From a virus (lineage: Duplodnaviria; Heunggongvirae; Uroviricota; Caudoviricetes), in IMG/VR virus record IMGVR_UViG_3300020045_006153, positions 51,550-115,549 of that record: a DNA stretch of 64,000 nt; one strand, given 5' to 3'. Positions 2,367 through 53,990 of this stretch are shown here, piece by piece. The notes below the pieces were generated by a model. That model did no database searches. It was not told where the DNA came from and worked only from the letters and a program-made list of their open reading frames with translations. Position 1 is the first letter of the stretch, and every line of letters begins with the position of its first letter. Made by a program: the position numbers and the translations under genes.

Positions 2367-3473
2367 ATGATAACTAATGATTTCAATGTCACAATTTCTT
2401 CAGCAACGCTGAACGAAAATATGTTTAAGAAGTTTGGTACAAAAGTAAACTTTGACAAATACACTAGAGAGGATCTTGAAAACTATAGAAACCTTCTACG
2501 TACAAAGTTAAACCAAACTGAAAGTGCAGCAGGATTTAACGATTTGTTAGCCAACGAAGGCTATCAGAAAGATAAGTTTATGTTAAACTTGTTGAACACC
2601 AAGATCAAAGAAATGCTAGGTGAAAGTGTACTTGCCGAAAAAAGTACAAGTCAAAAACAAGCGAGAACAATGGCCGCAGCAGCACATGATCCTAAATTTG
2701 CAAAGAAAGTAGGAATCAAAAAGAGCGTTGCTAAAGAGTTCAACAAGGCCGATACTGGCACTAAACAATTGAGTAAAGCAATGAAAAATAAACCAACAGA
2801 AAAGAAAGTTAAAGAAGAATTAAAAGGCGCGCAAAAGAAATTAGATGTTTCTAAGCCAAAGGGTAAGTTAGATAAGAAAGACTTTGCTGCTTTACGTTCG
2901 AAGAAAAAAGTTAAGGAAGATACAATGCGAGGTCACTATCGTAATATTCTTGAAGGGTTGCACCGTCTTATTAATGAAGACGAAGAAGGCAAGGCTAAGG
3001 ATATTACTGCCGGATCTGACATGGTTAATGACTTTACAAGTTGGATGCAACGTGTCGGTCAATATCAAACAAAGAGTATGATCGAACTTGCAGATAGCAT
3101 TCGTGCTAACTTTGGCCAAGCTGAAGCCGATGCATTTCGCGCAGCAATTACGCCAGCGTTGCAAGAAGCATTATCAGCGCTCACACAAAGCCGTGAAACT
3201 ATTACCCGCGCAGTTGCAGTACTTGCCGGAGAAGAAACCGGAATTGACCCGATGGGAATGGATCCAGCAGGATCACCTGACGGTATGTTAGATGCAGAGG
3301 TTCCGCCTGCTGACGGAATGGATTCAATGAATGGCGGGGATGAGTTCGGGGCAAGCGATGCAGCCGCAGGCGGTGCTGAAATTACAGGACGTGAAATGCG
3401 TGAAGGGCGACAAGTTGCTCGCGCTAACAAATTACGTGAAGCACACTCTATAATGAGCAAACTTGCAAAATGA
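2367..3473 (+). CDS. hypothetical Lys-rich protein with acidic Gly/Asp-rich C-terminal region (possible internal virion or scaffold-like protein)
   Basis: 368-aa ORF, composition only. Confidence 0.5.
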   Translation: MITNDFNVTISSATLNENMFKKFGTKVNFDKYTREDLENYRNLLRTKLNQTESAAGFNDLLANEGYQKDKFMLNLLNTKIKEMLGESVLAEKSTSQKQARTMAAAAHDPKFAKKVGIKKSVAKEFNKADTGTKQLSKAMKNKPTEKKVKEELKGAQKKLDVSKPKGKLDKKDFAALRSKKKVKEDTMRGHYRNILEGLHRLINEDEEGKAKDITAGSDMVNDFTSWMQRVGQYQTKSMIELADSIRANFGQAEADAFRAAITPALQEALSALTQSRETITRAVAVLAGEETGIDPMGMDPAGSPDGMLDAEVPPADGMDSMNGGDEFGASDAAAGGAEITGREMREGRQVARANKLREAHSIMSKLAK

Positions 3474-3872: not shown

Positions 3873-4574
3873 ATGACTATTACATCTCCTCCTCCATTCG
3901 TGGAGCGTTACAAATATAAATCCTGCCAGCAAATTAACGACCCTGTTTTAAAGAAACGAGTTTACTTAACTCCGGATGGCGAAAAAACTCCAAGTGTTAC
4001 AACTATTCTTAGTGCCACAAAGGATATGACAGCATTAAATGAATGGAAGAAACGAGTCGGTCCTGAAAATGCTGCTCAAATTTCAAAAGAGGCAGCGGGC
4101 GTAGGTACTGCAATGCATTCTAATTTAGAACGATACTGTGCAGGAATTGAACGTATGCCTGGTAAGAATCTAGTTCATGTGCAAGCCAATAAAATGGCAG
4201 ATCAAATAATCGAGCAGGGGTTAAGCAAGGTAAACGAGATTTGGGCAATGGAACAAAGTTTATACTTCCCTGGATTATACTCTGGTACAACTGATTTGGT
4301 TGGGGTATACAGTGGTGACCCAGCAATTATGGACTATAAACAAACCAACAAACCAAAGAAAGCAGAATGGGTTGAAGATTATTATATCCAATTAGTTGCA
4401 TATATACTTGCCCATAATGAAGTATACAAGTCAGACATTCGCAGGGGTGTTATCTTCATGTGCAGTAGAGATTTACAATATCAACAATTTGATTTATTGC
4501 CTAAAGATTTTAACAAATATGAAGATATGTGGCTAGGCAAAGTTGAAAAGTACTATCTGAACTATAACAAATAA
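3873..4574 (+). CDS. PD-(D/E)XK family nuclease-like protein
   Basis: Motif order TTDLVGV ... IMDYKQT ... YYIQLVAY fits D / (D/E)xK / QxxxY of RecB/Cas4-like nucleases. No Cys cluster. Confidence 0.4.
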   Translation: MTITSPPPFVERYKYKSCQQINDPVLKKRVYLTPDGEKTPSVTTILSATKDMTALNEWKKRVGPENAAQISKEAAGVGTAMHSNLERYCAGIERMPGKNLVHVQANKMADQIIEQGLSKVNEIWAMEQSLYFPGLYSGTTDLVGVYSGDPAIMDYKQTNKPKKAEWVEDYYIQLVAYILAHNEVYKSDIRRGVIFMCSRDLQYQQFDLLPKDFNKYEDMWLGKVEKYYLNYNK

Positions 4575-4604
4575 TGGCATAAATATCCCATAGAGGATAT
4601 TATA

Positions 4605-7181
4605 ATGGCTATTATTGAGATTGCAAAAATACAGATCAGAAGAGGCGATGCTCGCCAACTAGGAGTAGTACCGGAATTATCAACAGGTGAATTTGGGCTA
4701 GCGGTTGCTGGTACATTGCCTGATTCAGCAGTTCCAGAATTATATATAGGTAATCAACTCACCGATGGTGCAGCAGTCGGTGGTAATTTCAGAATATTAA
4801 CTGAATACGATAGAGCATCTCCAACACTGCAAGGTGTGCTATACGGGCATACTACCGCACGAACAGGCGCATCAACTACTCCTAATTACGGAAATGTAGC
4901 ACTAGGGTATTGTGCTGGAAATTTAACTGCAAGCGGCAGTGCAAATATTGCAATTGGATATAATACATTAAGGCATACTGCATACGGATGCGGAAATATA
5001 AGCGTCGGATATTGTTCAATGACAAACAATACAATAGGTGCTGATAATGTAGGTATCGGGTCCAGCACGTTATGTAATAACATCACTGGTAAGTGTAATA
5101 TTGCAATCGGAATTAATGCATTGTTTAATAATGCAACTGGTAATAATAGTATTGCAATTGGACAAAATTCATTGTATATGCAGGCAGCAACCATTACTAC
5201 CGGAACTGAAAATATTGCGATCGGTACATGTGCACTGTATGCAACTACTACTGGATTTTGCAATGTTGCAGTTGGTATGTTTGCATTAAGTAAGAACATT
5301 ACTGGATATGGAAATATTGCTGTGGGAGCATGCTCGCTATTGGCTAACACTGCGGGATCTGATAATATTGCTGTAGGGTTTGGCGCATTATCAACTAATA
5401 CATCAGGGTATAATAATATAGCGTTGGGAGGGAATACTTTATTATCAAACACTACCGGGTATGGCAATATTGCAATAGGATATAATACATTAAGTAACAA
5501 CACTATCGGAAAAGGCAACATTTCTTTAGGTGATGAGTCATTATCTAGCACAACTACTGGTACTAATAATGTTGCTATAGGTATTAACGCTCTTGCTTTT
5601 AATACAGGAGGCATTAGCAATATTGCAATCGGAAGTAGTTCATTATTTTCTAATACTGAAGGGACTAATAATTTTGCTGCTGGATTTAATGCATTATATT
5701 CGTCAACTGATCTTTCAGATAATATCGCAATCGGATGTTTAGCATTACGATCGTTTGAAGTTGATGCTGACGGATATGGTCCCAACATTGCATTAGGTGC
5801 GTTTGCATTAACTGCTAATATAGAAGGCAGTGCAAATATTGCAATTGGATGTAAAACATTAAGCAGTAGTACTGTTGGATATGGAAATATTGCATTAGGC
5901 AATAACGCAATGTCTTTTAATATTAGTGGACGTCATAATACTGCAATCGGAATGGATGCATTAACAAATAATACTATCGGACGTTATAATACCGCAATCG
6001 GCTCTTTTGCATTATGTGGAAATATTACCGGTGACGATAATATTGCAATCGGATTTAATTCATTAAATCAATTAACTTCTTATGGCAATATAGGAATCGG
6101 TCGATCATCTGGTTCGGATATAACAACAGGAACATTTAATGTCATTATTGGATCTAACTCAGGAGCATCGATAGCAACTGCTAGTTGTAATGTTATAATC
6201 AGTGACGGGTATGGTACTAGCAGAATTGCAATTAATGAAGTCGGGTCAACATGTATTACGTCTAACGTAACTTCTAACAACGTCGGAATAGGAGCACTTA
6301 TAGTATCAGGCGGTACAAGTATTGGAGAAAGTCTGTTTGTTGCAAATACTGCTACTATATTAAGCAATGCAATATCAGCACTAACGGTAGTCGGCGGCGG
6401 CTCGTTTGGCGACGATTTAACTGCACCTGCAATGTATGATGATACTAATAGAGTAATAACCTCAGTTACTCCCACTGCTAGTACAGGGATTGCAATTACT
6501 GCCAGCGTTACTGGCGGCCCAGAATCTAGTTTTACAATTGAAAATTTCGGTGTAGTGCATTTGTCAGGTACTACAAATCAAATAGCAGTAAGCACAAGCA
6601 CAGGAAGTGTAATTGTTAGTTTGCCGAGTTCAATTAATGTAACAACAGGAACATTTGTTAACGTATATGCTACAGGAACAAATATTAGCACATCTACATT
6701 AACAGGAGCAATAGTAGTAGCAGGCGGCGTTGGCATCGGTGGCAATTTGAATGTAGGTGGCAACTTAATTACTCCTAATCGTCCATCATTTAGAGTTATC
6801 GGCAAATCTAACCTGTTAGTAACAGGTACTAATATAATTAATTTTGCAACTGGTGCTGTATTAGATTATACACAAACTTCTGCATACAACACCGGTACCG
6901 GTGTGTTTACTGCTCCTATTGCTGGTTTGTATAGTGTATATTTTAACGGTAAAAGTACCAATACTTCTACGCTTGCAACTGCTATTATTTCCAGAACAAT
7001 TGCATCGACCTCAACTTCAACTGTTTCAATTTGGGAAACTGAAGGAACAACCAGTACTAGCAATTTTGGTGTAAGTTCGATTATTAAATTAGCAGCAAGT
7101 GATACTGTATTTGCCACAGTAACAACAGGTACTGTTCAATTTGATATGAACGATAGTTGGGGCGTAACTTACCTCGGCTAA
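4605..7181 (+). CDS. tail fiber protein with repetitive beta-helix-like NIAIG repeats and a C1q/TNF-like C-terminal domain
   Basis: 858 aa. More than 25 degenerate approximately 19-aa repeats (GxxNIAIGxxALxxNTTGxxN). C-terminal GVFTAPIAGLYSVYFNG matches the gC1q hallmark (F-x-A/C-P-x-x-G-x-Y-x-F). Confidence 0.7.
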   Translation: MAIIEIAKIQIRRGDARQLGVVPELSTGEFGLAVAGTLPDSAVPELYIGNQLTDGAAVGGNFRILTEYDRASPTLQGVLYGHTTARTGASTTPNYGNVALGYCAGNLTASGSANIAIGYNTLRHTAYGCGNISVGYCSMTNNTIGADNVGIGSSTLCNNITGKCNIAIGINALFNNATGNNSIAIGQNSLYMQAATITTGTENIAIGTCALYATTTGFCNVAVGMFALSKNITGYGNIAVGACSLLANTAGSDNIAVGFGALSTNTSGYNNIALGGNTLLSNTTGYGNIAIGYNTLSNNTIGKGNISLGDESLSSTTTGTNNVAIGINALAFNTGGISNIAIGSSSLFSNTEGTNNFAAGFNALYSSTDLSDNIAIGCLALRSFEVDADGYGPNIALGAFALTANIEGSANIAIGCKTLSSSTVGYGNIALGNNAMSFNISGRHNTAIGMDALTNNTIGRYNTAIGSFALCGNITGDDNIAIGFNSLNQLTSYGNIGIGRSSGSDITTGTFNVIIGSNSGASIATASCNVIISDGYGTSRIAINEVGSTCITSNVTSNNVGIGALIVSGGTSIGESLFVANTATILSNAISALTVVGGGSFGDDLTAPAMYDDTNRVITSVTPTASTGIAITASVTGGPESSFTIENFGVVHLSGTTNQIAVSTSTGSVIVSLPSSINVTTGTFVNVYATGTNISTSTLTGAIVVAGGVGIGGNLNVGGNLITPNRPSFRVIGKSNLLVTGTNIINFATGAVLDYTQTSAYNTGTGVFTAPIAGLYSVYFNGKSTNTSTLATAIISRTIASTSTSTVSIWETEGTTSTSNFGVSSIIKLAASDTVFATVTTGTVQFDMNDSWGVTYLG
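4890..6100 (+). repeat. tandem degenerate approximately 57-nt coding repeats inside the tail fiber gene
   Basis: Periodic ggaaatattgcaatcgga-type units at DNA and protein level. Confidence 0.6.
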
Positions 7182-13668: not shown

Positions 13669-14346
13669 ATGGCAATAGACATATATCAAAAAGTTCGCGG
13701 TACTGCATTATGGCCGGTGATTACTGCATCAAGTAAATATTACTTAGTAAATGCAATTTTACGAGAATATCACAATCATCATCATGCATGTATGGTTGTA
13801 CAATATGTTAACTTGTTAACGGAGTACAATCCATCGAATGAATTGCTGATTGCGGCAGAATGGCATGATGCAGTGTATTTTCCTGGTGCAGGAGGTGCTG
13901 CAAACGAAGCATGTTCAGCAGCAGCACTTGGTATTGAATCACGTAGTATCAATAGTCAAGTTGAACTAACTACTGAACAAAAAAATGCAATTAATAATGC
14001 CCAAACATTAATTCAGCATACTTCTGTTGAAGTACACTTACGATGTGATCACGAGGCAATTAAACCAGGTCGTGATCTTGCAATTTTATTAGATGCAGAT
14101 TTAGCGTCATTAGCAGTTGACAAATATTCAAATTTCTTGTATAATCAAGAGTGTATTATTCGTGAAAACGGAGGTATTGTTAATGATGAAACATATAAAC
14201 GGTGTGCAGAATTTCTTGTTAAATTTCTGCAATGCCGTGAATACATTTATTCAACTGAGATGGGAAGACAACTTTGGGAAAGTAAGGCACGAGAGAATAT
14301 CAAGTACTTTTGTTTTCAATATGGTGTGCCAGTATTGGAAGAATAA
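13669..14346 (+). CDS. HD-domain-like phosphohydrolase (tentative)
   Basis: H...HD arrangement (NHHHACMVV ... EWHDAVY), 225 aa. Confidence 0.35.
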   Translation: MAIDIYQKVRGTALWPVITASSKYYLVNAILREYHNHHHACMVVQYVNLLTEYNPSNELLIAAEWHDAVYFPGAGGAANEACSAAALGIESRSINSQVELTTEQKNAINNAQTLIQHTSVEVHLRCDHEAIKPGRDLAILLDADLASLAVDKYSNFLYNQECIIRENGGIVNDETYKRCAEFLVKFLQCREYIYSTEMGRQLWESKARENIKYFCFQYGVPVLEE

Positions 14347-14371
14347 ATAAAATATCGTTGTAATTCCTTTG

Positions 14372-14418
14372 AAATGAAGGCAGGCAAGACGCGGGTTCAA
14401 CTCCCGCCAGGTCCACCA
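14372..14418 (+). ncRNA. ssrA: tmRNA acceptor piece (T-arm + 3' acceptor strand + ACCA) of a permuted two-piece ssrA
   Basis: AAGACGCGGGTTCAACTCCCGCCAGGTCCACCA is near-identical to the E. coli SsrA 3' end GGACGCGGGUUCAACUCCCGCCAGCUCCACCA. Confidence 0.6.
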
Positions 14419-14619
14419 TAAAGAAATTAATGCGTAACTTTAAAGTATTATCTGTAGAAGAATCCCCAGGAGGCCAGGGTCCTGACCGAGCTTAGAAGAT
14501 TCATTACACGGCTTATGTTAATAAGCAATGGAAAACAGATGTGCTTTGGCAGATAGCACGAAACGCAAATCAAGCCCGCGAAAGAGCAATGGCAAGATTT
14601 GGTAAAGTTTCTTTATGAT

Positions 14620-14778
14620 GGGCCTGATCTGGCATTCGATTGCGTGAGATAGTAGAGACGGCAACGCGACACAGATAGTCGTAAAAAGTAAACAAAAACA
14701 ACCGCAAACGATTCAGTTTACGCATTAGCGGCCTAACAGCCGCTTAGGGTAGTTATACCTAGTAACAGAAACTAACAA
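14620..14778 (+). ncRNA. ssrA: tmRNA coding piece (5' acceptor strand GGGCCTG, D-analog, tag reading frame 14704..14736 encoding ANDSVYALAA-stop)
   Basis: GGGCCTGATCTGGCATTCGA resembles the E. coli GGGGCUGAUUCUGGAUUCGA. Acceptor pairs with CAGGTCC of the upstream piece, including a G3-U wobble and a compensatory C4-G change. Tag GCAAACGATTCAGTTTACGCATTAGCGGCCTAA. Confidence 0.6.
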
Positions 14779-14806
14779 AGACCCGCTTCGGCGGGTTCTT
14801 TTTTGA
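14779..14806. terminator. intrinsic terminator (ACCCGC-ttcg-GCGGGT + TCTTTTTT)
   Basis: GC stem, tetraloop, T-tract. Ends the tmRNA transcription unit. Confidence 0.7.
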
Positions 14807-14816
14807 TAAATATTTC

Positions 14817-16052
14817 ATGCGTATAAACGAACTATTTGAAAATATAACCCCACACGAACTTGATCATGTTGAACAAATTGCAGATGCACTTTGGTCAAAA
14901 TTAGGAGTAGATGTTGAATTCACGAGGCATTTTTTTGACAGAGTAAATGATGAGAGAAATGGCAGGCCAATTACTGCTGATGAACTTATTGCAATGTTCC
15001 AAAAAGAATTTAAAACAAACGGCATCCAAATTTCCAACATGCGCCGGCCTGAAGCAGTACTGAAAGACTTACTATCCAGCATTAACATTCCATTTGTACT
15101 TAAACGCAACGGCGACGAGAAAGAATTAGTTGCAAAAACCGTAATGCGCAAGCGCGATTTTAAGAGTCCCGATCCTGCATACATTGTTAAGGAACTATTT
15201 GATAACGGAGTCGTTTCGTGGAATTGGGGATCTAAAACCAAAACTGAAGCAGAAGCACATTTTAAAATAGGTGAATTAGAATACACATTTTATGCATATG
15301 CTCCTATGATCGGGTCGGCATCTAAACCTCGCACCGCATGGGAAATAGAATTTCGAATTTCAAATCCGTTTTATAATGGAGATAGTAGATTTGGAATTGA
15401 AAAAACTGGCAATTCAACCGCAGTTATGTCGACTGTTGTTGCTATTACAAAATCATTTTTAGAACAATATAATAGTAGTATTGATAAATTAATCTTTAGC
15501 GCTGAGGAAGATTCGCGTAAAAAGTTATATGCAAGAATGATACGTAGGTTGTTGCCGACTTGGGGGTATGAGCAAACTGGTGGTAATTTTATATTAACTA
15601 AACCAGTTGCTAATTCGTTAAATGAATTGTTTGATAACGGTGCCGCAAAATGGGGGTGGTCGTATAGAGGTTCAGAAGAAGTCGAGGCTAGTTTTGGAGT
15701 TGAAGATGTAGAATATAAATTTTATGCTTACACGGTACCTAAAGTTGGCCCAGGAGTGTGGGACGTAGAGTTTAGAATTTCAACTCCTGATTACAAGGGC
15801 ACACGGTTTGGAGTTGCAAACACAGGTAACTCCGCAATTGTAATGTCCACAATTGTATCCATACTAAAAGCATTCTTACAAGAATATGAAGGGAAAGTTA
15901 CTAAGTTAATTTTCAGTGCAAAGGAAGATTCTCGTAGAAAACTATACGCAAGAATGGTACGTAGATTGTTGCCTACTTGGGGATATGAACAAACAGGTGG
16001 CAATTTCACATTGACCAAGCCAACTGGTGTAATAAAACCGCAATCTTTGTGA
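14817..16052 (+). CDS. hypothetical protein with internal tandem domain duplication and N-terminal MRINELFE motif
   Basis: 411 aa. Two roughly 135-aa repeats ending in near-identical SRKKLYARMIRRLLPTWGYEQTGGNFILTKP / SRRKLYARMVRRLLPTWGYEQTGGNFTLTKP. Confidence 0.6.
   Translation: MRINELFENITPHELDHVEQIADALWSKLGVDVEFTRHFFDRVNDERNGRPITADELIAMFQKEFKTNGIQISNMRRPEAVLKDLLSSINIPFVLKRNGDEKELVAKTVMRKRDFKSPDPAYIVKELFDNGVVSWNWGSKTKTEAEAHFKIGELEYTFYAYAPMIGSASKPRTAWEIEFRISNPFYNGDSRFGIEKTGNSTAVMSTVVAITKSFLEQYNSSIDKLIFSAEEDSRKKLYARMIRRLLPTWGYEQTGGNFILTKPVANSLNELFDNGAAKWGWSYRGSEEVEASFGVEDVEYKFYAYTVPKVGPGVWDVEFRISTPDYKGTRFGVANTGNSAIVMSTIVSILKAFLQEYEGKVTKLIFSAKEDSRRKLYARMVRRLLPTWGYEQTGGNFTLTKPTGVIKPQSL
15186..16032 (+). 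repeat. intragenic tandem duplication (two roughly 400-nt units)
   Basis: Protein and DNA level repeat within 14817..16052. Confidence 0.6.
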
Positions 16053-21236: not shown

Positions 21237-21604
21237 TAACGCCGCCGGATATTTTTCAAAATAATGAACATAGCATAATGCTGATGAACGTTACTAGAAA
21301 AGAAGAAGACGAAATTGCATTATGGTTAACAGATCACGATTCTGATCCTATAAACATTTATTTCTATCAAAACGAGCCAAATGTTCCGTGGGTTTTACAC
21401 TCACTAGGATGCACTGCTTATAAGTACATTAACTTGGATAACTTAACTACTGTCACTATTCATTTGGCAGGATATATCGTTTCCAAACAAAATACTTTCT
21501 ATTTTACTGATGATGCAAATACTGCTGAATTGTACAGCCATATTAATACAAACAGAGTAAAATCAATAACTGACTTTTTGGAAATAACAAGTGGAAAAAA
21601 ATAA
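21215..21604 (+). CDS. hypothetical protein
   Basis: 129-aa ORF. Confidence 0.4.
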   Translation: MAIQVNLITPPDIFQNNEHSIMLMNVTRKEEDEIALWLTDHDSDPINIYFYQNEPNVPWVLHSLGCTAYKYINLDNLTTVTIHLAGYIVSKQNTFYFTDDANTAELYSHINTNRVKSITDFLEITSGKK

Positions 21605-22832
21605 AACACACTCATGCGACTTTTGCGGCAAAACAAAAGATAACGTAGAAAAATTAATAGTCGGAGAGTTCTCCGCAATCTGTAACGAATGTGTAGAATT
21701 ATGCGTTGGAATGCTAGACGATGACAAAGTTAAAAAGTTTCCAATTGGAGACAATAAACAAATATTCAATCCTACTAAAATTAAAGATTTCCTCGATACA
21801 TATGTTATCGGGCAAGACGATGCAAAAATTGCATTAAGCGTTGCAGTGTGTCAACACTTTAAACGTATACACAGCCCATCTAAGGATATTGAAATTGAAA
21901 AAACCAATGTTCTAATGCTCGGGCCCACGGGGTGTGGGAAGACTATGCTTGCGAAAAAACTAGCAGAATATTTAAACGTACCATTTGCGATCTGTGATGC
22001 TACTGGTATTACAGAAGCAGGTTATGTAGGCGACGATGTCGAAAGCGTACTACTACGATTGCTAAGTGCGGCAGATCAAGATGTTGAAAAAGCACAACAT
22101 GGTATTATCTATATTGACGAAATTGATAAACTTTCGAAGAAAGGTGAGAATGCATCTACTACTCGTGATGTGGGTGGAGAAGGGGTTCAACAAGCATTAT
22201 TGAAAATGGTCGAAGGTACTATTGCTCGTTTACCAGCCAGTGATAAACGCAAACATCCTCGAGGCGAAATGTTAGAAATGGATACTTCGGGTATTTTGTT
22301 TATTTGCGGCGGCGCATTTGTAGGTCTTGATAAAATTATCGAAAAACGAGCATCAAAATCGTCAGTTGGGTTTCATGCAGATATGAAAAAGAAAACTGAA
22401 ACAAATTATAAAGATGTTACAACTAAGGATTTAATTACATACGGATTGATTCCTGAATTTGTGGGACGATTTGGACTTATTACAAGTGTCGAAGAACTAG
22501 GAGTTCCTGACCTTGTTCGTATTCTAAGAGAGCCTAAAAATAGTTTAATTAAGCAGTATAAGCACCTATTTGATTTAGACGGTATTAAGTTAGAATTCGA
22601 CGAAAAAGCGTTGCAAATCGTGGCAGAAAAGGCGAAAAAGATGCAAACTAACGCACGTGGCCTCAAGAATATTCTAGAACAAGTATTACTACAGTATCAG
22701 TTCAATGCAGTTGATCTTGTTGAACGCGGGTTAAGCAAAATTGTAATCGGCGAAGATGCAGTTAATGGTAAAGCAGCATCTTTAGTATTCGATAAGAAGA
22801 AGGAAGTTAAGGCTGGTGAAAATACTGCTTGA
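21591..22832 (+). CDS. clpX: ClpX-like AAA+ ATPase (unfoldase)
   Basis: N-terminal C4 zinc-binding domain (CDFCGK...CNEC), Walker A GPTGCGKT, Walker B IIYIDEIDK, 413 aa. Confidence 0.85.
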   Translation: MEKNKTHSCDFCGKTKDNVEKLIVGEFSAICNECVELCVGMLDDDKVKKFPIGDNKQIFNPTKIKDFLDTYVIGQDDAKIALSVAVCQHFKRIHSPSKDIEIEKTNVLMLGPTGCGKTMLAKKLAEYLNVPFAICDATGITEAGYVGDDVESVLLRLLSAADQDVEKAQHGIIYIDEIDKLSKKGENASTTRDVGGEGVQQALLKMVEGTIARLPASDKRKHPRGEMLEMDTSGILFICGGAFVGLDKIIEKRASKSSVGFHADMKKKTETNYKDVTTKDLITYGLIPEFVGRFGLITSVEELGVPDLVRILREPKNSLIKQYKHLFDLDGIKLEFDEKALQIVAEKAKKMQTNARGLKNILEQVLLQYQFNAVDLVERGLSKIVIGEDAVNGKAASLVFDKKKEVKAGENTA

Positions 22833-25217: not shown

Positions 25218-25484
25218 ATGACAAACAAATTTCAAACCCGAATTAAAGAACTGTTTCCTGAAAATGGAGTAATGTGTTTAACGGAAAGTAGTACACCAGA
25301 AGGTGTTGCGTATTACTATTCCGAAGAACAAGTTCAACGCCTTGCAGCATTGATTGTCAAAGAATGCATTGCTATCATCGATGATGTGTACGAACAAGCC
25401 GAGCCAGATCATGGATGCCACGACCGGGCTACATGGGCAACTAGTGACGACATCAAGTATATGTTTGGAGTGCAAGATGAATAA
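25218..25484 (+). CDS. hypothetical protein (first gene of the NadM transcription unit)
   Basis: 88 aa, ATGA overlap with nadM. Confidence 0.4.
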   Translation: MTNKFQTRIKELFPENGVMCLTESSTPEGVAYYYSEEQVQRLAALIVKECIAIIDDVYEQAEPDHGCHDRATWATSDDIKYMFGVQDE

Positions 25485-26505
25485 AAAATACGATACCCTT
25501 GTTCTAATTGGCCGGTTTCAACCAGTGCATAGTGCACACGTAGAAATTATTCAGCGCGCAGTTTCGCTAACAAAAGATCTAATTATTATTGTTGGATCGG
25601 CTGATCAACCTCGAACTTATAAGAATCCGTGGTCTTACAAAGAACGTGCAATGATGTTGAATAACGTGCTAGAGACAATTAATGTTGGCACAACTCGTGT
25701 TCACATCGAATCAAACGTTGATACAATTTATAACGATACTGCTTGGGTACGTCGAGTACAAGGTATTGTTTCTAAGTACAGGTGTCTCGGTGGACGCACT
25801 GGAATTATTGGTCACAAGAAAGACGAAAGTTCGTTCTATCTGGAAATGTTCCCTCAATGGGAATTCGAAAATGTAGATTTGATTCAACCGTTAAATGCTA
25901 GTAACGTGCGAGATCTGTATTTCCGTGAAGATGCAAATATGAATTTCTTGCGCTCTGTGATTCCGCAATCAACTTATCGCATGTTGGAAGGATGGTTTCA
26001 ATCGCCGGATCGTGCGCAAGTGATCAAAGAACGCGAGTTTGTTGCAAAATACAAAAAGCAATACGAATCACTGCCTTATCCTCCGATCTTTGTGACTGCA
26101 GATGCACTAGTTATTCAAAGCGGACACATTTTAATGGTGAAACGGCGTGCCGAACCCGGTAAAGGGTTGTGGGCTCTTCCTGGAGGATACGTAAATGCAT
26201 ATACTGATAAAAGTGTCGAGGATGCAATGATTCGAGAACTAAGAGAAGAAACTGGTATCAAAGTTCCGGCGCCTGTATTGCGTGGTAGCATTGTAGATCG
26301 CAAAGTGTTTGATGCAGTTGATCGCAGCCCTCGTGGCCGTATTATTACGCACACACATAAAATTGTATTGCCCGATGGTCCTTTAATTAAAGTAAAAGGA
26401 GCAGATGATGCTGAAAAAGCAGCAATGCGAGCAATCGCAGATATTCGAAGCGACGAATGCTTCGAAGATCATTATGAAATGGTACAATGGGGAGTAGGAG
26501 CATAA
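25477..26505 (+). CDS. nadM: bifunctional NMN adenylyltransferase / ADP-ribose pyrophosphatase (NadM-Nudix)
   Basis: N-terminal LVLIGRFQPVHSAH (H/TxGH nucleotidyltransferase motif) and C-terminal Nudix box GGYVNAYTDKSVEDAMIRELREETGI. ORF track starts at 25354, but ATG 25477 directly follows the upstream stop. Confidence 0.8.
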   Translation: MNKKYDTLVLIGRFQPVHSAHVEIIQRAVSLTKDLIIIVGSADQPRTYKNPWSYKERAMMLNNVLETINVGTTRVHIESNVDTIYNDTAWVRRVQGIVSKYRCLGGRTGIIGHKKDESSFYLEMFPQWEFENVDLIQPLNASNVRDLYFREDANMNFLRSVIPQSTYRMLEGWFQSPDRAQVIKEREFVAKYKKQYESLPYPPIFVTADALVIQSGHILMVKRRAEPGKGLWALPGGYVNAYTDKSVEDAMIRELREETGIKVPAPVLRGSIVDRKVFDAVDRSPRGRIITHTHKIVLPDGPLIKVKGADDAEKAAMRAIADIRSDECFEDHYEMVQWGVGA

Positions 26506-35815: not shown

Positions 35816-37276
35816 ATGTCAAAACTTAATAGCATTATAACCGATACCGATTCTTACAAGGTATCAATGTGGAAACAATACCCAGCAGGAACAGAATATG
35901 TCTATTCTTACATCGAATCCCGTGGTGGCAAATATGATCGAACAGAATTTCTCGGGGTACAGGCTCTCGCAAAGTATCTTGCGACACCGATTACGCAAGA
36001 ACAAATTGATTATGCAGAGAAAATTTGGACTCTGCACGGAGAGCCGTTCAACCGCGAAGGTTGGCAATACATCCTTGATCAACATGAAGGCAAGTTACCT
36101 TTGCGGATTCGCGCAGCCAAGGAAGGCCTTATCATTCCGACTAAAAACGTCCTCTGCACAATCGAAAATACTGATCCAAACTGCTTCTGGCTCACAACTT
36201 GGGTGGAAACAGCGGCGCTACGTGCAATCTGGTATCCTACCACTGTCGGAACTACTTCGTGGCATATTAAGCAAGAAATTCTAAACTACCTGGAGAAGTC
36301 TGGTGACCCTACTACTATTGCTTTCAAGCTTCACGACTTTGGCGCTCGCGGTGTTTCTTCTGGAGAAAGCGCAGGGATCGGTGGTGCAGCGCACCTGGTT
36401 AACTTCATGGGCACCGACACTATTTCTGGTGTCCTCTATGCCATGGATGTATATGGTGGTGACGTTTGTGGATACAGTATCCCAGCCGCAGAACACAGCA
36501 CCATCACAAGTTGGGGTCGTGCACACGAAGTAGACGCTTACCGCAATATGGTCAAGCAGTTCGGCAAGCCTGGCGCTATCCTTGCTGTGGTTAGCGACTC
36601 ATACGATATTTACAAAGCCTGTGAAATGTGGGGAACGGAACTAAAAAATGATGTTATCAATTCTGGCGCAACTGTTGTTATCCGCCCTGACTCTGGCGAC
36701 CCTGTGGTGGTTGTGCCTAAAATGCTCAGAATCCTTTCTGAAAAGTTTGGGTATACCACCAACGCAAAAGGATATAAGGTACTTAATAACGTTCGCGTCA
36801 TTTGGGGCGACGGTATTAACAGTGTTAGCTTATCCAGTATTCTTCGCTGTGTAGTTGATGTAGCAGGATACTCTACAGACAATATTGCATTTGGTATGGG
36901 CGGCGGATTGTTGCAACAATGTGACCGTGATACACTGCAATTTGCTATGAAGTGTTCTTCGATTGGTATTCGTGAAGTTCCTGCAACATACGATCCAACT
37001 GCACAAGAAGAAAACACTGACGGTTCTGTGCTTGTATGGCGTGATGTATTCAAAGACCCTAGTACCGACCCCGGCAAGGCTTCTAAGAAGGGTCGTGTGA
37101 CATTGTGGACAAACGGTGCGCCACAAGGTACTGAATACGAAACCGCAGTCGACTGTCCTACACGCTGGACTGACAAAGGATTTGCTTGGAATGATGCAAT
37201 GGAAACGTATTTTGAAGACGGTGAAGTAAAGTTCACACAACCCTTTGAAGAAGTACGGACTAACAGCAATCTATGA
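35816..37276 (+). CDS. nadV: nicotinamide phosphoribosyltransferase (Nampt/NadV)
   Basis: 486 aa, characteristic type-II PRTase length and motifs (GTDTISG-like region, FGMGGGLLQ). Confidence 0.85.
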   Translation: MSKLNSIITDTDSYKVSMWKQYPAGTEYVYSYIESRGGKYDRTEFLGVQALAKYLATPITQEQIDYAEKIWTLHGEPFNREGWQYILDQHEGKLPLRIRAAKEGLIIPTKNVLCTIENTDPNCFWLTTWVETAALRAIWYPTTVGTTSWHIKQEILNYLEKSGDPTTIAFKLHDFGARGVSSGESAGIGGAAHLVNFMGTDTISGVLYAMDVYGGDVCGYSIPAAEHSTITSWGRAHEVDAYRNMVKQFGKPGAILAVVSDSYDIYKACEMWGTELKNDVINSGATVVIRPDSGDPVVVVPKMLRILSEKFGYTTNAKGYKVLNNVRVIWGDGINSVSLSSILRCVVDVAGYSTDNIAFGMGGGLLQQCDRDTLQFAMKCSSIGIREVPATYDPTAQEENTDGSVLVWRDVFKDPSTDPGKASKKGRVTLWTNGAPQGTEYETAVDCPTRWTDKGFAWNDAMETYFEDGEVKFTQPFEEVRTNSNL

Positions 37277-37746
37277 TTGAAATTAAATCCCCTGCTAAAC
37301 TAGAGTGGGATATTTTTAACGGTGCAATCTTTCTGGGAGGCTCAATTGAAATGGGTCTCGCAGAAGATTGGCAACCGAAACTTATTGCAGAACTTGCTAA
37401 TTACGAAATTGCAGTGTTGAATCCCCGTAGGGATAATTGGGATCCAACATGGGTGCAATCAATTAAGAATCCAAAGTTTAAAGAACAAGTACAATGGGAA
37501 CTTAGTGCAATTGATCATGCAAACATTGTTGTATTCTATTTTGATCCTGACACCAAATCACCTATTACCTTAATGGAACTAGGATTGTGTGCAGGACAAG
37601 GTAGTAAAACTATTGTATGCTGCCCCGACGGTTACTGGAGAAAAGGTAACGTAGAAATTCTATGTGAGATGTACAATATTAAATTAGTTGAAACATTTAA
37701 CGATTTTGTAACAGAGATTAAATTAGCACTGCTAGTCATTTACTAA
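37273..37746 (+). CDS. nucleoside 2-deoxyribosyltransferase-like protein
   Basis: IFLGGSIEMG and ITLMELGLCAG motifs in a roughly 157-aa flavodoxin-like protein. Confidence 0.45.
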   Translation: MIEIKSPAKLEWDIFNGAIFLGGSIEMGLAEDWQPKLIAELANYEIAVLNPRRDNWDPTWVQSIKNPKFKEQVQWELSAIDHANIVVFYFDPDTKSPITLMELGLCAGQGSKTIVCCPDGYWRKGNVEILCEMYNIKLVETFNDFVTEIKLALLVIY

Positions 37747-46761: not shown

Positions 46762-46838
46762 GCGCTGGTAGCCTAGATGGTAAGGGCAGTTGCCTCTAAA
46801 ACAACAAGTAGTGGGTTCGAATCCCATCCAGCGCGCCA
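46762..46838 (+). tRNA. tRNA with anticodon CUA (amber/UAG suppressor; Gln/Trp-type scaffold, G73 discriminator, encoded CCA)
   Basis: Cloverleaf: acceptor GCGCTGG/CCAGCGC, D-stem GCCT/GGGC, anticodon stem GTTGC/ACAAC (one C-A mismatch), loop CT-CTA-AA with U33, 5-nt variable loop, T-arm GTGGG-TTCGAAT-CCCAT. Confidence 0.75.
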
Positions 46839-51526: not shown

Positions 51527-51556
51527 TTACTTGACGCAGAATGCAAAGTAGTGTAT
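51527..51556 (+). promoter_or_regulatory. promoter TTGACG-17-TATAAT
   Basis: Upstream of 51659. Confidence 0.4.
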
Positions 51557-51658: not shown

Positions 51659-53056
51659 ATGAATAGTTTCGTAACCGCAGTTAACACTGTACCGACCATG
51701 ACACGCACCGAAAACGGTATGCGTACTCTGGAATCCAGCAAGAGCAATCTTGTTGACTTGTTCTTTGCTATTGGCGCAAGCCGTGGTAAGGACTTGAGCA
51801 CCGAGTTTGCTCGTGCACTTGCACAAGACTCTACCCTTGCTTTGCGTATGCTTGCATGGGCACGTGACGTGCGTGGTGGTGCAGGTGAACGTGAAGTTGT
51901 GCGCAAGATTCTGTTGAATCTTGAAAAGACCAACCCAGAAGCGTTGGATCGTATTTTGCCACACCTGGCAGAATTTGGTCGTTGGGATGACCTGTTGATC
52001 TTCAACACAAAGCCAGTTAAGGCTAAGGCCTTTACTATGATCGGTGATGCACTTCGTGTGCGTAACGGTCTGGCTGCAAAGTGGATGCCTCGTCAAGGAC
52101 CGCTTGCTGCAGAACTGCGTACTTTCTTTGGAATGTCGCCTAAGTTCTACCGTAAGTCGCTTGTTGAAATGAGCAAGACTGTTGAGCAAAACATGTGTGC
52201 TAACGATTGGACAAACATTGAGTACTCGCATGTGCCATCCGTGGCTGCATCGCGTTACCAAAAGGCGTTCAAGAAGCACGATGCAGTTGGTTACGATGCG
52301 TACAAGGCTAAGTTGGTTACCGGCGAAGCAAAGGTAAATGCTGCGGCAGTTTACCCATACGATGTTATCAAAGCACATAAGTTCGGTGGAGATAACATTG
52401 TTATTCAAGCCCAATGGGATGCACTGCCGAACTACATCGGTGATGAACTTGTTCTGCCAATGTGTGACGTTTCGGGTTCCATGGGTACCCCAGCTGGACA
52501 AAACGGAAACGTAACTTGTCTTGATGTGTGTTTGAGCCTTGGCTTGTACTTGGCTGATAAGAACACTGGACCGTTCAAGGACATGTTCCTTACGTTCTCT
52601 GCAAAGAGCAAGATCGAAGTATTGAAGGGAAACCTGCTTGCTAAATTGGCTCAATTGCAACGTGCACAATGGGATATGAACACTAACCTTAACTCGGCAT
52701 TTGAAGAAGTGCTGCGTGTTGCTAAGGCTGGAAATGTTAGTGCAAATGATATGCCTAAGTATGTGTTGATCATGTCGGATATGCAGTTTGATCGTTGTGC
52801 AAACTACGATGACTCTGCGATGCGTATGATCGAACGTAAGTATGCAGATGCTGGATACGTTGTCCCTAACATCGTATTCTGGAACTTGAATTCCCGTGCA
52901 GGACAATCTCCTGTGGAGTTCAACAAGAAGGGTGCTGCATTGGTCTCCGGATTCAGCCCAGCAATCCTAAAGAGCATTTTGGCTGCTGAGGATCTTGATC
53001 CTACCAGCGTAATGCTGCAAACTTTGAACAGCGACCGTTACTCTGTAATTGTCTAA
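51659..53056 (+). CDS. vWA-domain protein with N-terminal TROVE-like (Ro60/DUF2828-like) region
   Basis: MIDAS motif PMCDVSGSMG. N-terminal LVDLFFAIGASRG...ALRMLAWARD resembles the Ro60 TROVE helical repeats. 465 aa. Confidence 0.55.
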   Translation: MNSFVTAVNTVPTMTRTENGMRTLESSKSNLVDLFFAIGASRGKDLSTEFARALAQDSTLALRMLAWARDVRGGAGEREVVRKILLNLEKTNPEALDRILPHLAEFGRWDDLLIFNTKPVKAKAFTMIGDALRVRNGLAAKWMPRQGPLAAELRTFFGMSPKFYRKSLVEMSKTVEQNMCANDWTNIEYSHVPSVAASRYQKAFKKHDAVGYDAYKAKLVTGEAKVNAAAVYPYDVIKAHKFGGDNIVIQAQWDALPNYIGDELVLPMCDVSGSMGTPAGQNGNVTCLDVCLSLGLYLADKNTGPFKDMFLTFSAKSKIEVLKGNLLAKLAQLQRAQWDMNTNLNSAFEEVLRVAKAGNVSANDMPKYVLIMSDMQFDRCANYDDSAMRMIERKYADAGYVVPNIVFWNLNSRAGQSPVEFNKKGAALVSGFSPAILKSILAAEDLDPTSVMLQTLNSDRYSVIV

Positions 53057-53523: not shown

Positions 53524-53990
53524 AATACACATTTACAACAGTTGCTAGCGTCGGCTTACATCGGGCGCCTATGATAACAGGACCTCGGGTCACTGGGACA
53601 GCAAATCTCCTCGGTTGAAAGGAGTACTTGGTCACTACCCTGCGGGATGATGATCGGATACGCCTTCGTACAACCGATTTGACCATTTGAAAAATTAAAA
53701 CTCAAAAGGCTAAAGAAGGGAGAAAAACCCTACGCTACATTGCTTGCTAGCATTAGCAATGTAGCCGCCGTCGTATAAAGACGCAACTCGAGGTACCGGA
53801 CGACCGCCTCTGTAATTGTTGTAATGCTGTGACTGTAAAGAACTCGGATAATGTTTTCTTGATTTTATTTTTGCCCTTTCTGGGCAAAGAGTGACCATTG
53901 AATCTGGATAATATCTCTCTAATCTAATATGTGTTGAACCGCAGGTGAAAACACATACGAGCAACGCTCGTATTATACGATAGTCTTAAA
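53524..53990 (+). ncRNA. candidate large structured non-coding RNA (unclassified)
   Basis: About 470-nt ORF-poor GC-enriched region with multiple perfect hairpins (GCTACATTGC-12nt-GCAATGTAGC; TTGCCC-tttct-GGGCAA; ACGAGC-aac-GCTCGT; ATCGG...CCGAT). Confidence 0.3.

Follow-up and report, generated by a model that had tools for sequence, protein, structure and literature searches.

What kind of RNA is encoded by a phage locus in which the 3' end of an ssrA-like sequence precedes its 5' end, and what does the long segment between the two ends hold? We addressed these questions in a stretch of 64,000 nucleotides (nt) of caudoviricete DNA (positions 51,550 to 115,549 of the IMG/VR record IMGVR_UViG_3300020045_006153; hereafter, the window), for which an initial annotation had proposed a two-piece transfer-messenger RNA (tmRNA). 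We assign a probability of about 0.85 to the reading that positions 14356-14805 are a working, circularly permuted tmRNA gene of the beta type in a giant T4-like phage, with a nested gene of 62 codons as its spacer. Two-piece tmRNA in a phage is an already published kind of gene and not new; what is added here is that the long spacer is a conserved nested small gene.

All parts of the gene lie on the plus strand. The acceptor piece (14356-14418), delimited by alignment to the Rfam model RF04321, by ARAGORN and by pair counts, contains two P2 strands that pair with the coding piece (14356-14360 and 14381-14387), the T-arm GCGGGTTCAACTCCCGC (14391-14407), the 3' acceptor strand CAGGTCC (14408-14414), the discriminator A (14415) and an encoded CCA (14416-14418). 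It is followed by an intervening segment of 201 nt (14419-14619), predicted to be cut out of the mature RNA. The coding piece (14620-14805), recognized by RF04321 and by the alignment of the beta_tmRNA model from GGGCCUG to the terminator, opens with the 5' acceptor strand GGGCCUG (GGGCCTG in the DNA, 14620-14626). The T-arm, the 3' acceptor strand and the CCA (ending at 14418) are therefore encoded before the 5' strand (14620) and the tag. The two acceptor strands form a stem of 7 bp, GGGCCUG/CAGGUCC, which includes G3-U70 and is followed by ACCA. The P2 strands of the coding piece (14640-14646 and 14662-14666) leave a single G-G mismatch (14383 versus 14644), and a hairpin at 14667-14681 occupies the position of pseudoknot 1 (PK1) ahead of an A-rich linker. 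The tag reading frame called by ARAGORN (14704-14736) has the codons GCA AAC GAT TCA GTT TAC GCA TTA GCG GCC TAA, with GCA as the resume codon and ANDSVYALAA as the peptide. Its stop codon TAA sits in the loop of a hairpin (14728-14743), the next hairpin spans 14745-14761, and the terminator at 14780-14805, the only one 3' of the coding piece, closes the unit.

The elements named in the initial annotation (T-arm, acceptor strands, CCA, tag and terminator) were all located in place, and the perfect acceptor pairing with G3-U70 was recovered as it had been described. ARAGORN reported a permuted gene ('tmRNA*') at 14326-14827 with the tag ANDSVYALAA, in agreement with the proposed two-piece structure. 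The covariance model of permuted tmRNA (RF04321) matched 14356-14736 end to end (model positions 1-213 of 213) with 106.9 bits, against a gathering score of 47 (E = 7e-20). The model of standard one-piece tmRNA (RF00023) matched in truncated form, at the 3' end alone (39 bits versus 47), and was rejected. A promoter-like site with a perfect sigma-70 consensus (TTGACA-17-TATAAT, 12 of 12 matches) was found on the plus strand at 14117-14145, inside an open reading frame (ORF) for a phosphohydrolase-like protein of 225 aa (13669-14346); it points towards the tmRNA gene from about 210 nt before the acceptor piece and is a candidate promoter of a single precursor transcript. A second, weaker site (14326-14353, 9 of 12 matches) stops just 2 nt short of the acceptor piece. 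The sigma-70 consensus search of the locus found no promoter-like site within the intervening segment.

To compare the gene with relatives, IMG/VR was scanned twice for the window's acceptor end followed, after a gap of 81-202 nt, by GATGGGCSTG. The scans yielded 119 and 17 viral contigs, 136 in all, with the same acceptor end and gene order, and ARAGORN called 123 of 138 extracted genes (window included) permuted. The 86 unique sequences of this family came from a pattern that fixes the acceptor stem, and six relatives found via the protein encoded in the spacer were added as independent sequences. Among the 86, P2 pairs occurred in several compensatory types, for example UA in 29, CG in 25, GC in 12 and AU in 8 sequences at one pair. 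A formal covariation count was made on 18 sequences, six of which had been retrieved with the spacer protein, independently of the RNA. In this set 87.8% of the cells were paired and 18 of 27 pairs had changes on both sides; the covariation score was 0.381, versus 0.133 for shuffles (0 of 500 reached 0.381) and 0.05-0.07 for slid controls. Both-side changes affected 4 of 5 pairs in the first P2 helix and 6 of 6 in the second, with 89-94% of the cells paired; helix 5 was poorly aligned among relatives (40.8% of cells paired). G3-U70 was invariant in 18 of 18 sequences while the adjacent acceptor pairs varied on both sides, and acceptor stems as different as GGGCCUG/CAGGUCC, GGGGACG/CGUCUCC and GGGCCAG/CUGGUCC all retained it. 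The T-stems of the six relatives found via the protein differed too, always in a compensatory manner.

The initial annotation had described the sequence as gamma-like and a 47-nt segment at 14372-14418 as nearly identical to the 3' end of gamma-proteobacterial SsrA. Near identity held for about 31 nt from the T-arm to CCA, where we presume a single difference from the E. coli ssrA gene, and failed for the first 16 nt or so, which form part of the P2 helix and show no E. coli likeness. In a BLAST comparison with an E. coli ssrA, identity was 82.8% over 58 nt. The gamma assignment itself did not survive, as the E. coli likeness is confined to the T-arm and acceptor end and the best clade-specific model was that of beta-proteobacterial permuted tmRNA (RF01850, beta_tmRNA). 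With relaxed thresholds RF01850 scored 65.8 bits in the window, below its cut-off of 84, because the spacer exceeds the model's expectation by about 160 nt and the acceptor piece was misplaced inside it; the coding piece was aligned correctly through the post-tag hairpins and the terminator. Relatives with shorter spacers passed the threshold (XacN1 with 107.8, L004 with 109.7, L093 with 95.3, L132 with 89.8, L235 with 101.2 and L236 with 86.8 bits). Because these shorter-spacer relatives exceed the threshold, the window's tmRNA is best regarded as beta-type by relatedness, without being a scoring member of RF01850.

Some relatives found via the spacer protein (L223 at 2928-3332, L226 at 2347-2748, L228 and L231) have unusual T-loops without the usual UUCGA motif; examples of such T-arms are GCGGG-GGCAGUG-CCCGC and CCGGC-UAGCAUUAU-GCCGG. 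Four of the relatives (L223, L226, L225 and L227) exceed the threshold of the alpha_tmRNA model; their coding pieces nevertheless resemble the beta-type family.

What, then, is in the intervening segment? Its length had been noted as unusual at about 200 nt, and with 201 nt it was indeed the maximum among 138 spacers compared (median 101 nt, 95th percentile 162, next longest 196). It holds a plus-strand ORF of 62 codons (14430-14618), recognized by its homologues, its ratio of nonsynonymous to synonymous variation (pN/pS) and its variation by codon position. A Shine-Dalgarno-like TAAAGAAA (14419-14426) follows directly after CCA, the ATG is at 14430, and the stop is the TGA (14616-14618) of a TGAT, one base before the RNase P site. 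The frame from ATG to TGA is open except for a single in-frame TAG (14493-14495). Homologues of the 62-aa translation formed six clusters, all exactly 62 aa long and 77-85% identical, with Trp (TGG) at the position of the TAG. All five clusters with readable contig DNA (L222-L231; every cluster but P0126) have the ORF inside a permuted tmRNA gene, and RF04321 gave 95-111 bits in the five of these loci that were scanned. Genes flanking these loci vary. DNA identity to the window was 81-90% for the ORF and only 47-84% for the surrounding mature tmRNA pieces. pN/pS was 0.14-0.45, and variable sites at codon positions 1/2/3 numbered 20/15/34. The conservation of the ORF is thus of the coding type, and the ORF is a candidate for translation. 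Two loci, L222 and L223, carry nearly the same ORF with different T-arms, which suggests recombination between tmRNA backbones.

Across the family, the mature pieces align between relatives and the spacers do not. The first ~10 nt of a spacer pair with ~10 nt just before the TGAT, with obvious covariation; the mean duplex energy of this closing stem was -9.9 kcal/mol, compared with -5.0 for shuffles. Of 96 unique spacers, 95 have this TGAT, which directly precedes the RNase P site. In the window the closing stem joins 14419-14428 to 14606-14615, and the precursor fold predicts an extended helix, in which the closing stem and a partial ACCA/UGAU pairing would lengthen the acceptor stem. No Rfam family was detected inside the window's spacer at E <= 1, and its fold z-score was only -2.66.

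Spacers were clustered at a similarity ratio of 0.7 into 60 clusters, 29 of at least 120 nt and 31 shorter, and an ORF was counted if it started within 25 nt of the CCA and filled at least 80% of the spacer. Such ORFs, of 34-76 codons, were found in 25 of the 29 long-spacer clusters, versus a mean of 1.2 and a maximum of 4 in shuffles and 0 in the reverse complement. Many spacers begin with TAAGGA(A/G), then ATG at nt 11-14, then the ORF. Thirteen of the 25 ORFs end on the TGA of TGAT, seven continue into the coding piece and five stop 7-13 nt before the spacer end. Continuation through GAT GGG CCT, which gives the C-terminus ...DGPAMVSTG, was seen in L009, L013, L016, L017, L041, L064, L081 and L104 (spacer of 101 nt), and likewise in L126, L134, L135 and L141. 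Within sub-families, variable sites at codon positions 1/2/3 of the spacer ORFs numbered 36/24/53. By these counts, long spacers in this lineage of phage tmRNA genes hold a nested small gene as a rule, and spacer length is therefore set by ORF length, which accounts for the range of lengths observed.

A profile search of 1.84 billion proteins with the 62-aa family returned 15 small clusters (58-86 aa) and two weak matches to much longer proteins. The small clusters share the motif RKFEIL..PGGPGP..W.I.YKA..NKKW....ARN..EA...A..RFG. In one of them (P0136) the C-terminal residues are encoded by a tmRNA 5' end. A remote homologue (P0130) lies directly upstream of a permuted tmRNA gene (L235; ORF at 568-747, tmRNA at 752-1040), and the family is thus linked to permuted tmRNA genes in two positions, inside the spacer and directly upstream. 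AlphaFold2 modelled the protein as a beta-beta-beta-alpha fold with a predicted local distance difference test (pLDDT) score of 83.7. The family had no match in GenBank phages. It was also considered as a general partner of these tmRNAs and rejected as such, since it was not found in 137 IMG/VR tmRNA loci.

The surroundings of the locus are those of a large T4-like phage. The window encodes rIIA/rIIB, both subunits of a class Ia ribonucleotide reductase, virion and tail-fibre-like proteins and a nicotinamide phosphoribosyltransferase; genes lie almost exclusively on one strand, and the G+C content is ~38%. One protein is identical to a protein on a JGI contig of 353,233 bp, and the phage is therefore a jumbo phage. 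ClpX is an unfoldase that recognizes the C-terminal LAA of ssrA tags, and the tag ANDSVYALAA retains the determinants (AAND...Y...LAA) on which SspB and ClpX act in E. coli. A full-length ClpX homologue is encoded ~7 kb downstream of the tmRNA gene (21591-22832, plus strand; Pfam zf-C4_ClpX, AAA_2 and ClpB_D2-small; full-length match to PDB ClpX, E = 1.7e-123). The homologue combines a zinc finger with Walker A and B motifs, a GYVG pore loop and an RKH loop, with VGF replacing IGF. In a syntenic relative (L093) a tmRNA is likewise followed at ~7 kb by a ClpX, 71% identical to the window's. The co-occurrence of tmRNA and clpX in a jumbo phage has already been reported (PMC11242549).

Permuted tmRNA in a phage had been flagged as out of the ordinary, which did not hold. 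Phage Melnitz has a two-piece tmRNA, and in a set of 402 mostly aquatic phage genomes two-piece forms account for 53 of the 133 unique tmRNA structures (PMC9004378); the 136 viral contigs found here share the arrangement. The 2025 tmRNA database has entries for 79 phage tmRNAs and for 11,946 permuted genes (PMC11915505). The tag ANDSVYALAA also occurs in the viral contigs L132 and L076, and the usual form in the comparison was the 10-aa ANDxxFALAA. Very long tags of 28-32 aa were observed in many phage permuted tmRNAs, e.g. ANADTFDFSAMSFTGNTVSGKSKVALAA (10 genes), with loci L057, L058, L092 and L112 among them.

Among cultured phages, XacN1 (L001, AP018399.1) has a permuted tmRNA at 2984-3404 with the tag ANANTFDYALAA and no annotation in its record, and two annotated CUA tRNAs (1830-1988) about 1 kb upstream of it. 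The same stretch of XacN1, free of gene annotation, also contains a GOLLD RNA (4353-4766, 227 bits). Permuted tmRNA genes were found in Stenotrophomonas phage vB_Sm_QDWS359 (L232, 1172-1589) and in Xanthomonas phages BUDD (L233, 1180-1631) and Rb1 (L234, 1172-1600), and phage X1 matches the acceptor piece. The genes of L232-L234 are absent from the GenBank annotation; in BUDD and vB_Sm_QDWS359 a 'hypothetical protein' coding sequence is drawn over the gene. The hosts of these Xanthomonadales phages presumably have one-piece tmRNAs.

We searched 185,579 species genomes for the exact 26-nt T-arm and acceptor end and found it in 79, from unrelated taxa (Lachnospiraceae, Edwardsiella, Saprospiraceae, Patescibacteria and others), from which no host emerged; no beta-proteobacterial genome shared it. 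ARAGORN called a tmRNA in 50 of the 79, one-piece in 49. The sole convincing permuted cellular match was L188 (CALMZT010000158.1, 7027-7435), a 9.6-kb contig of an 'uncultured Chloroflexi' metagenome-assembled genome (MAG), and this short contig may be phage sequence misbinned into the MAG. Because beta-proteobacteria do not share the end and the cellular matches are scattered, the viral version looks like a lineage evolving within phages rather than a recent capture from a host. In searches for closer kin of the window itself, no near-identical DNA was found in GenBank phages for 14 kb around the locus, an exact look-up of window proteins came up empty, no relatives were found in IMG/VR via two flanking proteins, homologues of the protein downstream of the tmRNA were not adjacent to any tmRNA, and there was no match to the window's exact 5' end in IMG/VR or to the acceptor end plus 185-215 nt plus GGGCCTGA in a metagenome scan.

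Four other explanations were weighed against the reading of a working tmRNA gene with a nested small gene. The acceptor end might be an attP-type (phage attachment site) copy of the 3' end of a host ssrA gene that happens to stand upstream of an unrelated 5'-like remnant, neither being functional. Such recombination debris is conceivable inasmuch as the 3' end of ssrA often serves as an integration site and prophages carry fragments of it (PMC9004378), and E. coli prophage-like BLAST records match the 3' end only. Here both halves are complete, stand in the order typical of permuted genes and match RF04321 from end to end, with the tag frame and terminator intact; 136 viral contigs have the same arrangement, and no integrase was seen among the neighbouring genes examined. 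Above all, the helices that join the pieces pair throughout in the window and covary in relatives, which therefore rules out an attP remnant, and we give debris in general next to no credence. The initial annotation had likewise argued that the pieces act together. A different doubt concerns the spacer ORFs, which could be by-products of constraints on the RNA, namely the closing stem and the TGAT, and not protein genes. The Shine-Dalgarno-like start and the last codons are indeed the two strands of the conserved closing stem, and TGAT is kept even in spacers without an ORF. We nevertheless hold this to be very improbable, given ORFs in 25 of 29 long-spacer clusters where about one was expected and none occurred on the reverse strand, the excess of third-position changes, pN/pS of 0.14-0.45, the confident model fold (pLDDT 83.7) and the ~60-aa homologues that exist outside spacers, beside a tmRNA gene.

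Several observations do weigh against the preferred reading of a functional tmRNA gene with a nested gene, some of them against the RNA and others against the ORF. The RF01850 score of the window is below the cut-off, and no second PK1 stem was found by eye between P2 and the tag frame. SmpB, ClpP and SspB were not found in the 64-kb window (of ~353 kb) by tblastn with E. coli queries, a weak negative, and for SmpB also by Pfam scans of 20 mid-size ORFs in the window. Short spacers mostly lack an ORF (8 of 31 clusters below 120 nt have one), and in cultured Xanthomonas and Stenotrophomonas phages, including XacN1, spacers of 107-127 nt have strong closing stems and no ORF; the nested gene is therefore optional. 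A Foldseek search of PDB with the 62-aa model gave nothing significant, the best matches being a double-stranded RNA-binding domain, uS5 and a LeuA regulatory domain (E >= 0.04). The window's own copy of the ORF, finally, departs from all relatives. Trp22, invariant in six close homologues, is changed from TGG to TAG; a Glu shared by all close homologues and most remote ones is replaced by Lys (E5K); and the Shine-Dalgarno TAAGGAA(A/G) of all relatives is weakened to TAAAGAAA (TAAGGAA to TAAAGAA). All three are G-to-A changes, and pN/pS versus the closest relatives (0.39-0.44) is at the upper end of the range. We therefore put at even odds that the tmRNA is functional while the nested ORF is a recently dead pseudogene and the 201-nt segment only an excised spacer. 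Speaking against decay, the frame stays open for 41 codons beyond the TAG up to the conserved TGA, frameshifts are absent, pN/pS is raised only slightly, and the window encodes an amber-suppressor tRNA.

That tRNA, with the anticodon CUA, lies on the plus strand at 46762-46838 and was detected by ARAGORN (label 'Pyl') and by the Rfam tRNA model with a good score (61.9 bits); from its discriminator and anticodon loop, Trp, Gln and Glu were considered as the amino acid it may carry. It could decode the TAG at 14493-14495, in which case the 62-aa protein would be made only once the suppressor is present. Only 3 of 77 plus-strand ORFs in the window end on TAG, the frame is otherwise intact to the conserved TGA, and the jumbo phage XacN1, with a related tmRNA, has two CUA tRNAs ~1 kb upstream. 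We treat such read-through as a serious but somewhat doubtful possibility, as no other gene in the window has an in-frame TAG and the weakened Shine-Dalgarno and E5K favour decay. Genome-wide recoding of TAG was rejected for the window, where no gene besides the spacer ORF is interrupted by it. On balance, the window's copy has most likely been inactivated recently.

With the tmRNA taken as functional and the ORF as a gene of its lineage, we propose the following course of events. One precursor would be transcribed, from the promoter at 14117-14145 or by read-through, and would end at the terminator (14780-14805). A tRNA-like domain would form as the acceptor piece pairs with the 5' end of the coding piece via the 7-bp acceptor stem and the P2 helices, RNase P would cut between 14619 and 14620, and the encoded CCA end would be exposed. 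G3-U70 is expected to direct charging with alanine, and SmpB, presumably that of the host, would carry the RNA to stalled ribosomes. Translation would restart at GCA (14704) and append ANDSVYALAA, whose C-terminal LAA may serve as a ClpX signal, the phage contributing its own ClpX. Because the ribosome-binding site (RBS) starts right after CCA and the stop, the TGA of TGAT, lies one base short of the RNase P site, the cuts of tmRNA maturation would also free a minimal mRNA from the spacer.

We further suggest, speculatively and as a rather unlikely whole, that the spacer is an expression slot for small proteins. The tmRNA cuts would free an mRNA running from the Shine-Dalgarno to UGA-U, and the closing stem pairs the RBS with the last codons, whereby translation and maturation might compete or be coupled. 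ORFs that read on into the coding piece (7 of 29) would lose their stop to RNase P, a non-stop mRNA would result, and the peptide would become a substrate of the same tmRNA from whose precursor its mRNA was cut. The 62-aa family (RKFEIL...RFG) may be a tmRNA-associated factor, given its two kinds of position relative to permuted tmRNA genes, and its expression here may need the amber-suppressor tRNA.

These results have several implications. Permuted tmRNA is much commoner in phages than the 79 database entries imply, with 136 viral contigs plus several cultured Xanthomonas and Stenotrophomonas phages. The 'discarded' spacer of permuted tmRNA genes regularly harbours a protein gene framed exactly by tRNA-like ends, and annotators should not mask spacers as non-coding. 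If translated, the spacer ORFs would represent compact mRNA production by tRNA-processing enzymes, a natural system for competition among translation, RNase P cleavage and trans-translation, and a reservoir of small phage proteins overlooked so far. The literature searched yielded no account of ORFs in tmRNA intervening sequences, which is not proof of absence.

Elsewhere in the window, a Polynucleobacter-1 RNA (RF01718, 96.7 bits versus 37) was detected at 53543-53688, ~490 nt downstream of a gene (51659-53056) for a 465-aa protein with DUF2828 and DUF7788 and a match to the PHROG 'RNA-binding protein' (E = 1e-142). The two may form a protein/structured-RNA pair. Genes for NAD salvage were also observed, namely the nicotinamide phosphoribosyltransferase (35816-37276) and a fusion of cytidylyltransferase-like and NUDIX domains (25354-26505), as well as a nucleoside 2-deoxyribosyltransferase-like gene (37273-37746).

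Among known systems, the nearest is the two-piece tmRNA of beta-proteobacteria, reportedly described by Sharkady and Williams in 2004. As in RF01850, the acceptor piece comes first in the window, the tRNA-like domain is built from two RNAs, GAU stands before the 5' G, the tag follows the ANDxxFALAA pattern, and the post-tag hairpins and terminator align. Unlike it, the window has the acceptor stem GGGCCUG/CAGGUCC where the model consensus is GGGggUG/CAccUCC, and a coding spacer of 201 nt where the consensus has a few tens of nt. Melnitz (a Methylophilales phage), related marine phages and XacN1 resemble the window in having a permuted tmRNA in a large lytic phage, among early or auxiliary genes. 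The tmRNA type of Melnitz mismatches its host's own tmRNA; it differs from the window's in being of the alpha-proteobacterial type and linked to a glutamine riboswitch, with no gene described in the intervening segment (PMC9004378). XacN1 shares amber-suppressor tRNAs with the window and differs in having no spacer ORF.

Extra genetic elements in removed parts of tmRNA genes are known from the tmRNA database paper, which describes a group I intron within the T-loop and two intervening sequences with contents of their own, one a tRNA-Ala gene and the other a repetitive element, and does not mention ORFs in intervening sequences (PMC11915505). In these cases, as in the window, the removed sequence bears such an element; the window's is a small protein gene with its own RBS, bounded by tRNA-like ends, and whereas the intron form is self-splicing, it would be freed by tRNA-processing enzymes.

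In this last respect the locus calls to mind tRNA-mRNA operons (tufB) and mitochondrial 'tRNA punctuation', in which mRNAs are released by tRNA processing. In the window, too, the mRNA ends would come from RNase P and 3' end maturation of flanking tRNA-like structures, with the stop codon at -4 to -2 of the RNase P site, although the likeness would be mechanistic only and, unlike in those systems, both flanks belong to one tRNA-like domain that would close around the mRNA.

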